Below, in pieces: positions 4,401 through 45,960 of a stretch of DNA of 64,000 bases. Each line of letters starts with the position of its first letter. The stretch's first letter is position 1. The notes beneath the pieces are model-generated. The model did no database searches and was not told where the DNA came from. It worked only from the letters and a program-made list of their open reading frames with translations. Position numbers and translations under genes: made by a program. The stretch is from an uncultured bacterium. Its GTDB lineage: Bacteria; Babelota; Babeliae; Babelales; Babelaceae. The stretch is from the NCBI GenBank assembly GCA_963819815.1, contig CAWFXL010000001.1, positions 256,001-320,000 of the forward strand, in the 5' to 3' direction.

Positions 4401-4799
4401 ATGAACATCAAAAACACCCTAGTGGGTATGTTAATGATTATGTTGAGTACTGCAGCTGTTACACAATGCAGTGAAGGGAAAAAACAAGAGCAACGTGCTG
4501 AAGAAGCTAAAGCCCTGAAGCCAGGTAGAGGCTTAGGTATGGGACCTCTAGGTTTGAGAGCTCGAGCAATGGCTGCTGAAGCTGCCGCCAAAGGTAAAGA
4601 AGTAGAAGAAGAAGCAGTTGAAAAAGGAAAAGTAGCACTGTCAAAAGTAAAACAAGCTCCACCTCTTCCTCCAAAACGTGCAAAAAGAACAGCTGAAGCT
4701 CAAGCAGCTGCTGCAGCAGAAGAACCTGAACATGAAGAATCATGGGGCGAAATGTTAGCTCGTCATGGTGCAAGCGTTAATGAGCCATTTAGGTGCTGA
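4401..4799 (+). CDS. Exported low-complexity protein, array member 1 (PPLPPKR)
   Basis: AAGGAG RBS; MNIKNTL signal peptide; paralog of downstream genes. Confidence 0.85.
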   Translation: MNIKNTLVGMLMIMLSTAAVTQCSEGKKQEQRAEEAKALKPGRGLGMGPLGLRARAMAAEAAAKGKEVEEEAVEKGKVALSKVKQAPPLPPKRAKRTAEAQAAAAAEEPEHEESWGEMLARHGASVNEPFRC

Positions 4800-40014: not shown

Positions 40015-40103
40015 AAGAACAGGGGTTTTCAGTCTTCTGAGGTAAGAAACAGGGGGGGTGTTTTTGTCCTCAGGGGCAAGAAACAGGTGGGGTGTTTTTG
40101 TCC
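40015..40103 (+). repeat. Three direct repeats AAGAAACAGG..GGGTGTTTTTGTCC (first degenerate)
   Basis: Units start at 40015, 40044, 40078. Confidence 0.75.
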
Positions 40104-40107
40104 TTTG

Positions 40108-40428
40108 AAAAAAGATTTGCTATACTGGCTCAGACTTGATAAGGGTTCGAACGCTGAGCTAGATTATGTTATCAAACATCATACAAAAGTTATCCCGATT
40201 GAGATTAAAGCAGGAAGTTCGGGTAGTTTAAAGTCGCTGCACCTTTTTATGGATCTCAAGGGATTAACTATGGCAGTGCGGTTTCTTTCATCAGCACCCA
40301 CTAAAATACCAATCAAAATATAACGTAGTGCTAACGAAGACTACATTAGCTATGATCTTCTCTCGATTCCTTTTTATCTCATAAGTGAGCTTCATCGCTT
40401 GATAGACGATGCTTCCAAAATTAAATGA
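40108..40428 (+). pseudogene. C-terminal remnant of an AAA_14/DUF4143 ATPase
   Basis: LYW.R....NAELDYV....IPIEIKAG..GSLKSL; internal TAA at 40321, then in-frame SIPFYLI; ATPase domain absent. Confidence 0.8.
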
Positions 40429-40703: not shown

Positions 40704-41390
40704 TCAACGAATTTTTACGGCAAAGCTTTTCGATAGTGCATCATAGTCGTTTGGCGTAAGTTTACCGTTTTGTTTTCTCAAAGCAGCAAGATTATTGGCC
40801 TTTACAATGATGGCATCTACAAATTCTTGCGTATCTTGTGCGAAATTGAATTTCACTACATGCCAATGCTCCTGCAGAATGGGAGATTGCATCCACATAA
40901 GAAAAACATTTACCCAAGCGGATATCCCAGAAAGATCAAATCGTGCTGTTGATAGAAAATCTTCAATCGATTGGAAAATGCGCAATGCAGAATAAAGTTC
41001 GATCTGTCTCCTCTTTACTTCATCGTAGCTCTGCGGTAGATGTTTTTGAAGATCGCTATCCTGATTCATACTTGCGTATAAGAAATAACCTTCGGGGAAA
41101 GTGGCAATAAGTTCCTTTTGTGGCCCTAAATAGTTATTTTGTATGTTTTGTATAGTGTCGTATGCGATCCGATTCTTTTCAATCTGCTGATTGTGCTGGG
41201 AGGTTACGTATAAGTTATAAATAACGAGCAAAACTGATATACCAGCCAGATAGTCAACATACAAACTAAACCTTTTGAAACTTGGTAACTCAAATCTCTC
41301 TACAATAAATAAGCCGCCACCGAATGCTATCAGGCTGAGCAGTAATAGAATAATTTCATTTTCAAACATTATGATCCTCTGCAAAGTCAT
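40704..41390 (-). CDS. Hypothetical membrane protein (two N-terminal TM helices)
   Basis: 228-aa ORF with hydrophobic N-terminus. Confidence 0.7.
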   Translation of the reverse strand: MTLQRIIMFENEIILLLLSLIAFGGGLFIVERFELPSFKRFSLYVDYLAGISVLLVIYNLYVTSQHNQQIEKNRIAYDTIQNIQNNYLGPQKELIATFPEGYFLYASMNQDSDLQKHLPQSYDEVKRRQIELYSALRIFQSIEDFLSTARFDLSGISAWVNVFLMWMQSPILQEHWHVVKFNFAQDTQEFVDAIIVKANNLAALRKQNGKLTPNDYDALSKSFAVKIR

Positions 41391-41702
41391 TGTATCAGCG
41401 ACAACGTCCTAGAGTGCACAGCTACTGCAAGTAAGCAACTTACTGGACGATGCTAACAAAATCCCAAGCATTCATTGTGCTATGGATATAGGTGCATGCA
41501 TAGTACACCATACAACAGAGCTTACTGAGAAATCAACAATAGAGGACGAGTGTCGCTTTAAATCACTATGACGAGCGGCTGCAGAATTTGATCTTATACC
41601 TGTTTGGTGTTCAGCGGATCTAGCGTTACGCTGTCAACACTCTCTTTGATATTCCTTGACTACAACGTAGGAAACTCAGGGCATTATGTATGTGTAGCGC
41701 AT

Positions 41703-41798
41703 AAAAAAACCCCCACATCGATTTGCATCAATGTGGGGGAAAAAAGGAGAGTAGTAATGAAGCCTAAGTTAAAGTAAATAGTCTTATGACGATTTACA
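41703..41798 (-). ncRNA. Candidate small RNA with anti-SD/anti-start-codon tract
   Basis: TTGACA-N16-CATACT (41832-41805); 5' hairpin GTAAAT..ATTTAC; CTTCATTACTACTCTCCTTTTTT; CCCCCACAT..ATGTGGGGG+T7 terminator. Confidence 0.6.
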
Positions 41799-41901
41799 TA
41801 TCTAAGTATGTCCTATCTATTTTAAATGTCAACACCAAAAATAAGTTTTTTCCTCTGAAATGAGGGGTTTTCTGCCAAGATATTTTCTATCTGTACTGGG
41901 C

Positions 41902-43044
41902 TTATTCGTCCGGGCTGAAACTCTTTTTCTTCGATGTATTGCCCAATTTGGCAAGATCAATGCTTTGGGTGATTTCAAGAGGGAGTTTATTTTTGATGAT
42001 CCCTTCTAGAGGAGAGGTAAGTATAACCTGGGTAGATAGTTTTGTCATTAGGGGGAGTAATGCTGCAGCACGATCCTCATCAAAATCGGTCATAAAGTCA
42101 TCTACAAGCAGTATTGTGCCGGTCGATCCACGGACTTTAAGCACTTGAAGTTGAGCCATTTTCAAGAGAAAGACTACCAACTTCTGTTGGCCTCTCGATG
42201 CATAGGTCCTACAGGCTTTTCCCAAATAGGTCACCACAAAATCATCTAAATGAGCCCCAAGCAGCGAGCGTTTTTGACGAAGTTCGTTCTCTTTCAGCCC
42301 AGGATAGCGCTCTATAAGATCTTGAGCTGTCATAGTATCTTGTAAATCGCTATAGGGACGAGCATAGGCGTAGTCTATAGTCACAGGTTCCTCCTGAGAA
42401 TCAGCCATCAGAGGAAAAAGCTCTCGTATGAGAAGCTTTGCTTCGGACTCAATCTGTTTTACAGCATCCAGGCGGGCTTTTTGTATCTTAAAAGAGGTTT
42501 GCAGAAGCTGCTCCGTCCAGAGCATATAGGATTCATCATCAAAGCGACCTTTAGCAAGTAGGGCGTTTCTGTTATTAAGGATAGCGCGATATTTTTGTGA
42601 AGTAGCTGCATGAGATGGATCTAAGAGGAGGACTACAGTATCTAAGAATGACCTTCGTGCAGAGGGCGCGCCCTGAATGATCTGCAGGTCATCCTCCGTT
42701 ATCGTAATAACTCGGTAAGCTTCATATAGCTCCTTATAGGAGCCGATTCCTTGCTCGTTGAGCTTAACGGTCTTCTTACTTTTCGCAAACTGAACAGATA
42801 GGGCATCAAACCCCTGTGAAACAAGGCCAAGACCGACGCCGAAGCCTTCTGCTTGAGCTAAGACAAGCTCTTTAGGAAGGTGGGTCTTAAAGGAGCGTAA
42901 ATAGCAGGCATAATGGAAAGCTTCTAAAATTGAGGTCTTACCTGACCCATTTGGGCCATGTATCAGCACAATTGGTTTCTCAAAGTCAAGGTCTAACGAG
43001 GAGAAACAGCGAAAGTTTCGCAAACTTGCCGATACAATGCGCAC
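41902..43044 (-). CDS. recF: DNA replication/repair protein RecF
   Basis: NFRCF, GPNGSGKTSILEA, G.PSARRSFLD, GAHLDD, ASRGQQK, LLVDD...D.DEDR; follows dnaN. Confidence 0.92.
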   Translation of the reverse strand: MRIVSASLRNFRCFSSLDLDFEKPIVLIHGPNGSGKTSILEAFHYACYLRSFKTHLPKELVLAQAEGFGVGLGLVSQGFDALSVQFAKSKKTVKLNEQGIGSYKELYEAYRVITITEDDLQIIQGAPSARRSFLDTVVLLLDPSHAATSQKYRAILNNRNALLAKGRFDDESYMLWTEQLLQTSFKIQKARLDAVKQIESEAKLLIRELFPLMADSQEEPVTIDYAYARPYSDLQDTMTAQDLIERYPGLKENELRQKRSLLGAHLDDFVVTYLGKACRTYASRGQQKLVVFLLKMAQLQVLKVRGSTGTILLVDDFMTDFDEDRAAALLPLMTKLSTQVILTSPLEGIIKNKLPLEITQSIDLAKLGNTSKKKSFSPDE

Positions 43045-43059
43045 AAACGTTCAACCTCC

Positions 43060-44196
43060 CTATGATGCGATAGCTGCGGGAGCCGTAGGAGAGACCGGCA
43101 TAACCAAGTACGTCATCACAAATTCATCATTTTTTGACTCAAATATTAAAGGGCTAGCACTCCCCTTTAAATAGAACGTTAAGCTCTCATCCTGAAACGC
43201 CTGAATACCATTGAGCAAATAAGGAGTATAGAGCCTTATGTCGATTTTAGTGTCTTCCGACCCAGCAAAGGCAAGTTGTTCATCCAATGCACCAACTTCT
43301 TTGTTCTGGAGAGAGACCTGAACATCACGATGATTAAATGCAAAACGGGTCGCAATAAATTGATTTGATAGTAAGCATACTGAACGACGCAATGCCTTTA
43401 ACAGGCTTGAACGATCAATGGTGGCTGGACTAAAGGCATCGCGCATAAGGATAGCACGATAGTTAGGAAACTGTTCCGCAAGAACTTTCGTAAAAAAGTT
43501 AAAGAGCTCACCGGAGAATACTAACTGATTGCCACACGTTCCTAAAAATAGGGTGGTATCAGGGATTGTTTCTAAGATCTTTTTCAACTCAAAAATCGCG
43601 CGGCGAGGAAGGAGCCAATTCCTGGTCTCTTCAAAGGTTGTTTTTGAAGTTTTAACTTGAGCTAAACAATGCCCATCCGTAGTTGTCATAATAAGCTCAT
43701 GCGGAGATAGCTCAAGTAATAGGCCATTAAGGGCAACGTTCGCATTATTTTGGGGAATAAGAAAGCTGACGCTTTCAAGCATTTTCTGTAATAAAGGAGC
43801 ATCTAAAGGAAGCAGGTTCTCAATGCGTTCAGGAAAGGGGGGGAATTCTTGCGCATCTTTAATATTAAGAGAAAGATGGACACCTTGAGCTTGCAATGTG
43901 AGTTGATGTGAGCTGAGCTGACAGGTGATTGGTCCTTCGAGCTCTTTTACTACATCAAATATCCGCTTACCCGATACTAAAAATGATTCTTGTTCATCAA
44001 AGTCACTTTCAAGGAGTAAGCAACTTGACTGTAAGCTAATCTCAAGATCAGTACTCTTAAGTACAAGCTCTTTTTGACCAACTTGAAAGAGAATAGAGGT
44101 GGTTATATCAAGAGCCGTTCGCTTTGAGCAAATAGGCTGCATCGATGAGAGAATGTCAAATAAAGACTTTTGATCAACAATGAATTTTTTTTCCAT
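43060..44196 (-). CDS. dnaN: DNA polymerase III beta clamp
   Basis: STDLEISL, EFP.FP, LNGLL, TTDGH.L, FPNY, YLVMPV. Confidence 0.93.
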   Translation of the reverse strand: MEKKFIVDQKSLFDILSSMQPICSKRTALDITTSILFQVGQKELVLKSTDLEISLQSSCLLLESDFDEQESFLVSGKRIFDVVKELEGPITCQLSSHQLTLQAQGVHLSLNIKDAQEFPPFPERIENLLPLDAPLLQKMLESVSFLIPQNNANVALNGLLLELSPHELIMTTTDGHCLAQVKTSKTTFEETRNWLLPRRAIFELKKILETIPDTTLFLGTCGNQLVFSGELFNFFTKVLAEQFPNYRAILMRDAFSPATIDRSSLLKALRRSVCLLSNQFIATRFAFNHRDVQVSLQNKEVGALDEQLAFAGSEDTKIDIRLYTPYLLNGIQAFQDESLTFYLKGSASPLIFESKNDEFVMTYLVMPVSPTAPAAIAS

Positions 44197-44781: not shown

Positions 44782-45960
44782 ATGGCACTTAAAAGATCTA
44801 TTACCTTTGACATTTTGGAAGGTGCGCAGGAGTTTCTGACTGTTGGGTTGTTGGGATCCCGACAGTCAGGCAAAACCACGCTGAGCCAACTCATTTTTAA
44901 GGACCATGCTTATGTGTCTTTGGAGGATATTGAGATGCGCACTGCGGCTACAATTGAACCGCGTACCTTTCTTAATGCCAATCGTAACGCCTCCGGTTTA
45001 ATAATTGATAATTTTCATTATGTACCGGAGTTACTTTCTTACATGCAGCCCAAGGGGGGCAGCCACACACCGGGGACATATATAGTGTGTGGTCCATATA
45101 ATAGTTCTACGCTCGAATTTCTTACGGGGTACCTTGGGGAAACGTTTTCACTCAACATTTTAGAATCGCTATCCTTACATGAGCTTACCGATAATTATCT
45201 ACTGCCTCATGCTCTTGATGTAGTTCTGTATCAAGGACTTCAACCTGCAGTTTATATGAACGGTGGTGATACCAAATCTCACTATAAAAATTTCCTTTCT
45301 ACCTATATCGATAAAGATGTGCGCTTCTATGGGCAGGTTGATAATGTAACTACATTCCATACCTTTTTAACACACTGTGCTCAGTATAATGGGCATGTGC
45401 TTAATATAACTACGCTTGCAAATGAATCTGGTATAAGTGACCATACAGCTCGGCGTTGGATATCCTTACTTGAAGATCATCGTATACTTTTCTTACTCAA
45501 GCCCTATCATACTGATTTTGGGAAGAGGCTCATTAAAAGCCCCAAGCTGTATTTTTATGATCCCGGGGTTGTGTGCAGTCTTCTTAAAATAGAAGAGCAC
45601 GAGTTACCGAAGCATCGCAACAAACAGGGCCTCTTTGAATCTCTGATCATAGGCGAGCTTATGAAATGGACGCAGCAGAGAAAGCAGAAACGGCCACAGC
45701 TCTATTTCTGGCGCGACAAAACTGAGCATGAAATCGATTGTCTCATAGAGCACGAAGGGAAAGTCATTCCCGTCTCATTGCGCGGTGACCAAAAGACTGA
45801 CGCTTTTTCACATGATCTTAAGTATTGGCAAAAAGTTAGTGGTATGAAAGACCGGGGTATATGTATTTCATCAAATTCGGGCCCCCCAGAGGAAAAAGAA
45901 GACCATCTCGATATTGGATGGCGCTTTATGCAACCCTTGTTTAAAGCGATTCAGAGCTAA
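44782..45960 (+). CDS. AAA_14 / DUF4143 ATP-binding protein (degenerate Walker B and nuclease motif)
   Basis: GSRQSGKTTL, IIDNFH, KRLIKSPKLYFYDPG, YFWRD...EID. Confidence 0.88.
   Translation: MALKRSITFDILEGAQEFLTVGLLGSRQSGKTTLSQLIFKDHAYVSLEDIEMRTAATIEPRTFLNANRNASGLIIDNFHYVPELLSYMQPKGGSHTPGTYIVCGPYNSSTLEFLTGYLGETFSLNILESLSLHELTDNYLLPHALDVVLYQGLQPAVYMNGGDTKSHYKNFLSTYIDKDVRFYGQVDNVTTFHTFLTHCAQYNGHVLNITTLANESGISDHTARRWISLLEDHRILFLLKPYHTDFGKRLIKSPKLYFYDPGVVCSLLKIEEHELPKHRNKQGLFESLIIGELMKWTQQRKQKRPQLYFWRDKTEHEIDCLIEHEGKVIPVSLRGDQKTDAFSHDLKYWQKVSGMKDRGICISSNSGPPEEKEDHLDIGWRFMQPLFKAIQS

Follow-up and report, generated by a model that had tools for sequence, protein, structure and literature searches.

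What is encoded in the short interval behind recF in an uncultured member of the Babelaceae, and why does it carry the complement of a complete translation start? The interval lies at positions 41703..41832 (minus strand) of a 64,000-nucleotide (nt) stretch of assembly GCA_963819815.1 (contig CAWFXL010000001.1, positions 256,001 to 320,000), here called the window, in which all coordinates are counted unless a contig is named. The organism, whose genome (G000; 1.64 Mb in 2 contigs, 88% complete, main contig C1) is referred to below as "this genome", belongs to the Dependentiae (TM6), widespread parasites of protists that are almost all uncultured. A first-pass annotation had proposed that the interval specifies a small RNA (sRNA) able to repress many messages for secreted proteins. 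Our comparison of related genomes indicates that the locus is a real, conserved and nearly universal sRNA gene of the Dependentiae, whose product is a predicted RNA; its proposed regulon fares less well.

The predicted small RNA gene

The promoter boxes TTGACA and CATACT with 16 nt between them, a 5' hairpin, an open tract and a strong terminator, all of which had been described before, are present on the minus strand at the positions claimed:

41827..41832, minus strand: -35 box TTGACA of the sRNA promoter, from the sequence; a 16-nt spacer separates it from the -10 box
41805..41810, minus strand: -10 box CATACT, from the sequence (CATACT, CATAAT or TATAAT at identical spacing in relatives)
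41703..41797, minus strand: predicted 95-nt small RNA, from the fold and covariance model R1 (below)
41774..41797, minus strand: 5' hairpin, conserved in structure and not in sequence
41740..41773, minus strand: unpaired tract of 34 nt, open in both the minimum free energy (MFE) and centroid structures
41740..41762, minus strand: CUUCAUUACUACUCUCCUUUUUU within the tract, complementary to a Shine-Dalgarno (SD) sequence, 6-nt spacer, AUG and AAG
41710..41739, minus strand: intrinsic terminator stem-loop (13 bp, 7 of them G-C)
41703..41709, minus strand: U7 tail of the terminator, from the sequence

The start of the RNA near 41797 is placed 7 nt past the -10 box, and the U tail was taken as its 3' end. 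The 95-nt molecule so defined folds with an MFE of -30.4 kcal/mol (z = -6.55), which none of 200 dinucleotide shuffles equalled. Its tract is the exact reverse complement of AAAAAAGGAGA-GTAGTA-ATGAAG, so the earlier description of it as the complement of a start region ending in N6-ATGAAG is accurate, and CUUCAUUACUACUCUCCUUUUUU has a single match in the window at up to 3 mismatches (0 expected from 100 shuffles).

Conservation in the Dependentiae

Conservation of the tract in relatives had been set beforehand as a check on the sRNA proposal, and it was found at every level sampled. A blastn search with 161 nt as query found the tract together with the terminator in 33 of 40 relatives (E <= 1e-5), some of which belong to other families of the order. 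The covariance model R1, which consists of the tract plus the terminator, matches 132 of the 151 genomes of the order (117 of the 124 high-quality ones) in 19 of 21 families, and 80 of the 81 genomes sampled at the level of the phylum, all 81 of which are labelled as one order. The first 8 genomes aligned agree in 29 consecutive columns of the tract; they differ in the 5' part of the sRNA, and their terminator stems show compensatory changes. The core tract CUUCAUUACUACUCUCCUUU hardly varies, and CUUCAUUACUACUCUCCUU is retained in most full-length aligned rows; the exceptions are three weak paralogous rows with variant tracts (L005:1286, L005:1394 and L047:418; L numbers denote loci) and a small number that differ by one or two letters at the 5' end of the core (L057, L043:201 and L044:196).

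The flanking elements are conserved in a manner expected of an RNA gene. Among 70 distinct sequences of the terminator stem 98.6% of the cells are paired and both sides change at 10 of the 13 pairs, a degree of covariation reached by none of 500 shuffles (controls slid along the alignment pair at 25 to 52%). A promoter motif TTGAC[AT]-N16/17-NANNNT stands upstream on the sRNA strand at 43 of 47 distinct loci, as against 1 of 47 on the opposite strand and 3 of 47 and 0 of 47 in downstream regions. The segment from the predicted start to the tract has a median MFE of -7.7 kcal/mol at 43 loci and a median z of -3.7 relative to shuffles, with z below -2 at 34 of the 43, and the hairpin sequences themselves differ among loci. 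A conserved promoter of its own, a conserved intrinsic terminator and a conserved single-stranded seed are the marks by which trans-encoded base-pairing sRNAs are generally recognized, and covariance model, covariation, promoter motif and fold together find all three here, so the proposal of a conserved sRNA gene with an open, start-complementary tract stands.

In several genomes the gene is repeated in tandem, with 2 to 4 copies that each have a terminator of their own (L005:1286-1577 in G003, and L039-L044 in G034, G094, G070, G143, G051 and G142). Some of the extra copies have altered tracts, in which the CU-rich stretch resembling an anti-SD sequence is kept, as is CAU in most; the two additional copies in G003, which belongs to the same genus as this genome, are of this kind and retain both. 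Families f6 and f11 have a doubled anti-SD, CUCUCCUUUCUCCUUUUUU, and in f18 the tract reads CCUCAU in place of CUUCAU. A covariation check on the latter, a search of 5 genomes with GTAGTAATGAGG, gave 4 matches, of which 3 are the sRNA loci themselves and 1 lies inside a gene. The two families without an R1 match are f7 (0/3) and f16 (0/7). They have a shorter form (L220-L223, in G039, G087, G052 and G030): in 4 of 5 loci examined the promoter, CUCCUUUCUCCUUUU and a terminator follow recF, and the CUUCAUUACUAC part is missing. Since these divergent forms retain CUCCUUUCUCCUUUU without the anti-AUG part, the anti-SD stretch is the oldest layer of the element; the anti-spacer and anti-AUG part is common to most of the phylum.

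Proposed mode of action and candidate partners

We think it somewhat more probable than otherwise that the RNA occludes the ribosome-binding regions of complementary RNAs. In this proposal a trans-acting sRNA of about 95 nt would be made from its own sigma-70-type promoter in the 3' region of recF and would end at a terminator shared with the recF mRNA. Two hairpins, a protective one at the 5' end and that of the terminator, would flank a permanently single-stranded, pyrimidine-rich tract that is antisense to a whole initiation region (A-rich leader, GGAGAG Shine-Dalgarno, spacer GUAGUA, AUG and AAG). Pairing over 20 to 30 nt would proceed without Hfq, ProQ or CsrA and would keep 30S subunits off the partner RNAs, and so repress their translation in the cell. 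No Hfq, CsrA or ProQ was found in this genome (88% complete), and their absence fits long, chaperone-free duplexes, which are the usual solution in bacteria that lack such chaperones. Two kinds of partner are proposed. One consists of lineage-specific mRNAs, of which many encode exported proteins; the other is a second short RNA, called B here, in at least six families including the Babelaceae.

Candidate partners of the first kind come from a scan of the relatives in which sites were allowed 0 to 3 mismatches to the 20-nt complement of the tract. Start regions in this range form predicted duplexes of -25.6 to -40.2 kcal/mol and belong to unrelated genes, among them genes for exported proteins, an epimerase, a recombinase-like protein and some very short open reading frames (ORFs). 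A candidate partner encoding an EVE-domain protein is conserved in 4 genomes of one genus (-30.0 to -34.5 kcal/mol), and two exported homologues from different families (L133 in G044 and L141 in G136, 35% identical) both start with the exact 13-mer GUAGUAAUGAAGC. In the purine-rich leaders of this last pair SD-like motifs recur, and the doubled anti-SD form of the sRNA could base-pair with them. Near-matches to the 20-nt complement are about 12-fold commoner than those to a reversed control (310 and 25), an excess to which we give no weight for targeting because the start-region consensus would be enriched in any case. The proteins with near-perfect starts in relatives have no homologues in this genome by tblastn at E <= 1e-3.

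RNA B is a short RNA candidate at about 1001060-1001260 (+) of contig C1, outside the window (locus L079/L082). A scan for ungapped complementarity on both strands of this genome places C1:1001111 (+) first after the sRNA locus itself; the site offers 16 contiguous pairs (GUAGUAAUGAAGCUUG) plus 8 more. In a seed-filtered duplex scan of all genome windows (6042 in this genome, and 4346 in the whole contig of G013), B ranks 2nd of 6042 at -30.3 kcal/mol, rank 1 being the antisense of the sRNA locus, so that it is the best non-self partner here; its counterpart in G013 ranks 3rd of 4346 at -29.8 kcal/mol and is the second-best non-self partner there. Conservation of B extends over its promoter (CTTGATTTTTT ... 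TAGCNT) and its 5' end, AGCUARGAAGGAAUUGUAGUAAUGAAGC, and stops there. Its ORFs vary in length from 4 to 90 codons and share no peptide past MK. We found 29 B-type loci, in 29 genomes of 6 families, and GUAGUAAUGAAGC is exact in 28 of them; in the 29th a single change leaves a G-U pair possible. Across the 151 genomes the same 13-mer occurs 166 times (reversed control, 6), and no fewer than 46 of the matches fall outside the sRNA locus. When 37 of these outside sites were examined, 14 proved to be B-type, 9 were the starts of long ORFs with N-termini that look like signal peptides by eye, 2 were other long ORFs and 12 were short ORFs or lay within genes. As conservation in B is confined to the promoter and the start-site-like 5' end, we infer that control runs between the two RNAs with B as a target of the sRNA or as a decoy that titrates it.

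Two further elements resemble B in part. A 9-codon unit that looks like a start site, AAAGGAGAGCUAGCAAUGAAGCAC (C1 about 425730, minus strand), ranks 3rd genome-wide at -29.7 kcal/mol and may be another start-site mimic. At L145 (G160:C19:~63164), a terminator-like hairpin stands 5 nt past GUAGUAAUGAAGC, and this element may be a minimal decoy RNA. There are also three sibling RNA units at C1:1157748-1159256 (locus L080), between nfo and infB and likewise outside the window. The 5' end of B is perfectly complementary to the loop of these siblings; with the minus strand of that locus it forms 24 contiguous pairs (-43.7 kcal/mol), and in relatives the sibling units lie 1-2 kb from a conserved gene for a 728-amino-acid outer-membrane-like protein.

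These observations also bear on a different account, according to which the conserved task is cross-talk among RNAs, the tract, the start-site mimics such as B and the siblings forming a titration network. The rank of B in two genomes, the exactness of its 13-nt match at 28 of 29 loci despite an unconserved ORF, the duplex between the minus strand of the sibling locus and the start of B, and the high rank of the 9-codon unit all favour it. It has to contend, however, with the occurrence of B-type loci in only 6 families as against the sRNA in 19 of 21; moreover AUGAAGC, the part of B that is covered by the recF-linked sRNA alone, could persist through translation of B, and scans for promoters and terminators do not settle the strand of the sibling RNAs. 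We regard this account as possible but unlikely. Rather less likely still, in our estimate, is a more elaborate reading, a phylum-wide network of start-site mimicry in which the recF-linked sRNA and the second family of sibling RNAs compete for a non-coding decoy B and the free sRNA throttles messages with a strong SD. The amount of free anti-start-site RNA would then be set in part by dnaN-recF read-through, and the throttled messages, many for exported proteins, would be held down during the life cycle of the parasite.

Search for messenger RNA targets

The results that weigh against the proposal that the sRNA occludes ribosome-binding regions are gathered here. The first concern is the molecule itself, as the 95-nt RNA is a prediction, and the gene context discussed in the next section suggests that much of it may exist as the 3' untranslated region (UTR) of recF, since no terminator-like site separates the two at 17 of 18 loci. 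A search for sequencing runs that contain this DNA listed one of DNA type and none of RNA.

In this genome 4797 candidate starts (ORFs of at least 50 codons with an SD-like motif) were scored for duplex energy with the tract, giving a mean of -12.8 kcal/mol and a standard deviation of 3.6. The genes of an array in the window had been singled out as targets on the strength of their SD-to-AUGAA starts. The genes at 4401 and 6074 do begin with AAAAGGAGA-N5-AUGAA as described, yet the array genes as a whole rank 1105 to 2854 of 4797 (1727 and 1105 for the genes at 4401 and 6074), and with such ordinary predicted duplexes they are rejected as special targets. The start of ruvC is equally ordinary (-11.5 kcal/mol, rank 2854 of 4797). 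The strongest mRNA site in this genome, at -33.0 kcal/mol, lies inside the signal-peptide codons of the 728-amino-acid outer-membrane-like protein. Among 30 orthologous loci it is present only in G000 and the near-identical G001, the other 28 orthologues giving -6.9 to -21.6 kcal/mol, and this protein is rejected as a conserved target for that reason.

The broader expectation, that one sRNA represses many mRNAs of this genome, was not borne out. When 1500 gene starts were scored, the real tract had 10 strong partners (<= -22 kcal/mol) and 45 control tracts, in which CAU and the anti-SD were kept and the remainder shuffled, had 8.4 +/- 4.7; 13 of the 45 controls reached the count of the real tract. 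As control tracts find as many partners, a broad, tuned regulon in this genome is without statistical support. The comparison with G013 points the same way: among 465 reciprocal best pairs none has both duplexes at <= -22 kcal/mol, and the 4 pairs with both at <= -20 (0.31 expected) could be explained by conserved SD strength alone. Likewise the altered tracts of the variant copies in G003 have no start region matching within 3 mismatches of 20 nt. With no homologues of the relatives' partners in this genome and no strong pair shared by G000 and G013, the mRNA partners, if real, are lineage-specific, and invariance of a 20-nt core throughout the phylum exceeds what such shifting targets easily explain. 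Nor can B account for that invariance everywhere, because B-type RNAs were not seen in several families that have the full tract. What survives of the idea that mRNAs for secreted proteins are the targets is thus the set of near-perfect starts in relatives, many of which encode N-termini that look by eye like signal peptides; in this genome there is no such excess.

Gene context and alternative explanations

The genes around the sRNA in the window are as follows:

43060-44196, minus strand: dnaN, upstream of recF on the same strand
41902..43044, minus strand: recF (Pfam SMC_N and AAA_23), upstream of the sRNA
40704-41390, minus strand: ORF of 228 amino acids without a Pfam family, about 310 nt past the sRNA terminator

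The sRNA lies directly downstream of recF and on the same strand at all 18 recF loci that were found by protein search. At 17 of the 18 there is no terminator-like site between the recF stop codon and the sRNA promoter, so the recF mRNA probably ends at the sRNA terminator and carries the tract in its 3' UTR. By its sequence the layout is that of an sRNA with its own promoter embedded in a 3' UTR, into which transcription of recF would read through.

Such a layout invites the question of whether the element is nothing more than the end of the dnaN-recF mRNA, its 3' UTR and terminator, with a CU-rich tract that acts in cis or sets stability. There is precedent in the icaR 3' UTR of Staphylococcus aureus, which folds back on the start region of its own operon, and the constant position behind recF, the missing terminator and the status of the separate transcript as a prediction are what this explanation would lead one to expect. 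It does not account for a near-consensus promoter at a fixed distance in 43 of 47 loci (0 to 3 of 47 in the controls), for a 5' hairpin that begins at the predicted start, or for genomes with 2 to 4 tandem copies that each have a terminator. Folding in cis onto the recF and dnaN starts can be rejected, as the predicted duplexes of the two with the tract are unremarkable (recF, -11.5 kcal/mol and rank 2854 of 4797; dnaN, -9.1 kcal/mol and rank 4075). Overall we judge the explanation by a UTR alone to be distinctly unlikely.

The depth at which the anti-SD stretch is conserved raises another alternative, in which the RNA is a general anti-SD competitor that damps all A-rich mRNAs of the GGAGA type when it is abundant; it might be coupled to the dnaN-recF replication operon and to a developmental switch. 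The f7 and f16 forms keep only the anti-SD stretch, 79 of 1500 crude gene starts in this genome are complementary to the tract over 8 or more contiguous bases in the SD window, and the tract pairs with AAAGGAGAG one base further than does the tail of this organism's 16S rRNA, which is the standard GGAUCACCUCCUUUC; the strict synteny with recF is also in keeping with it. A competitor of this kind would, however, have no need of the invariant spacer and anti-AUG part CUUCAUUACUAC that most families keep, and the spacer complement is unlike the start-region consensus of this genome. We consider it improbable.

A cis-acting leader or attenuator of the downstream gene on the same strand is very improbable. 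It would suit the 8 of 18 recF loci at which the gene for a homologous exported protein begins 42 to 116 nt past the terminator (L157, L159, L160, L163, L164, L168, L169 and L170; a protein of about 330-450 amino acids with a YPVA motif near its N-terminus, of which we found no homologue in this genome). At the other 10 loci the downstream gene differs, and in this genome it is the unrelated 228-amino-acid ORF. The downstream starts pair with the tract in an ordinary way (-9.3 to -22.0 kcal/mol), and, given a 5' part whose sequence varies, no anti-terminator alternative conserved among the loci can be seen.

Finally, the suggestion that the plus strand encodes a tiny peptide, MKPKLK, behind its perfect SD and ATG is close to refuted, since the ORF varies from 3 to 42 codons across the 47 loci with only MKP in common, a scan of the plus strand found no promoter, and the promoter, the 5' hairpin and the covarying terminator with its T-run are all kept on the minus strand, which argues for an RNA gene there.

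Relationship to known small RNAs

Rfam 15 has no match in the whole window at gathering thresholds. At E <= 10 the interval 41350-41950 gives 11 weak matches, the best of which is VrrA (RF01456; 24.4 bits, with a gathering threshold of 50). VrrA shares with the sRNA a 5' hairpin, a CU-rich stretch and a terminator, a likeness of layout only because the score is far below the threshold.

The earlier comparison with the chlamydial IhtA was to a role. IhtA is an Hfq-independent repressor of translation that pairs at the start codon, and a 7-nt G/C clamp displayed in a loop and directed at the region of the hctA AUG is sufficient for it (PMC4355289). Pairing at start codons without Hfq in an obligate intracellular bacterium is also what is predicted here, and to that extent the two are alike. 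In place of a 7-nt clamp in a loop, the present sRNA has a linear, AU-rich tract of 23-34 nt; it belongs to another phylum, and no histone-like target was identified, no homologue of hctA having been sought. IhtA, for which Rfam holds a model, is not among the 11 matches at E <= 10. The analogy of mechanism can accordingly be kept, whereas membership of the IhtA family cannot, there being neither an Rfam match nor a loop clamp.

Further parallels are the trans-acting RsaE/RoxS of the Bacillales (RF01820) and the LhrC siblings of Listeria, whose conserved pyrimidine-rich motifs pair with Shine-Dalgarno sequences. They act in bacteria that can dispense with Hfq, some genomes carry extra copies, and RoxS has a known sponge RNA, RosA. 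Predicted pyrimidine-rich anti-SD pairing, extra copies, a setting in which no Hfq was found and a possible sponge-like partner recur in the sRNA described here. RsaE/RoxS and LhrC, however, use short C-rich UCCC motifs, mostly in loops, and the present sRNA has one linear tract of 23-34 nt over SD, spacer, AUG and second codon, in the Dependentiae lineage and in strict synteny with recF. It does not match the RF01820 model, and where RsaE/RoxS is recognized by two or more UCCC motifs in loops or linkers, CUCUCC occurs once in the present tract (twice in f6 and f11). DapZ and MicL of enterobacteria have promoters inside the upstream coding region and depend on Hfq. Like them the sRNA is found at the 3' end of a protein-coding unit, with its own promoter and with a terminator probably shared with the upstream mRNA; unlike theirs, its promoter is intergenic, and Hfq was not found. 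By analogy the sRNA would work in principle like RsaE/RoxS, LhrC or IhtA, and it is a member of none of these families.

In a literature search we found no paper on RNA regulators or sRNAs of the Dependentiae; the sRNA gene is previously undescribed, and the mechanism proposed for it, occlusion of the ribosome-binding site, is classical. If real, a near-universal and near-invariant sRNA gene for a whole phylum would offer a handle on post-transcriptional control in intracellular bacteria without Hfq and, as recF plus sRNA, a compact marker locus. It would also be a natural example of an antisense RNA that spans an entire initiation region, from the SD through the second codon, and B and the sibling RNAs suggest a decoy network that can be tested.

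Other features near the locus

Between the sRNA terminator and the 228-amino-acid ORF there is a gap of 300 nt (41400-41700) with no ORF and no Rfam match, inside which TTGACA occurs at about 41636 on the minus strand. On the plus strand an ORF of 78 amino acids (40087-40323) matches only the C-terminal end of DUF4143 (E = 2.2e-4), and resembles a leftover fragment of the AAA_14/DUF4143 ATPase gene that is intact at 44782-45960 (+).

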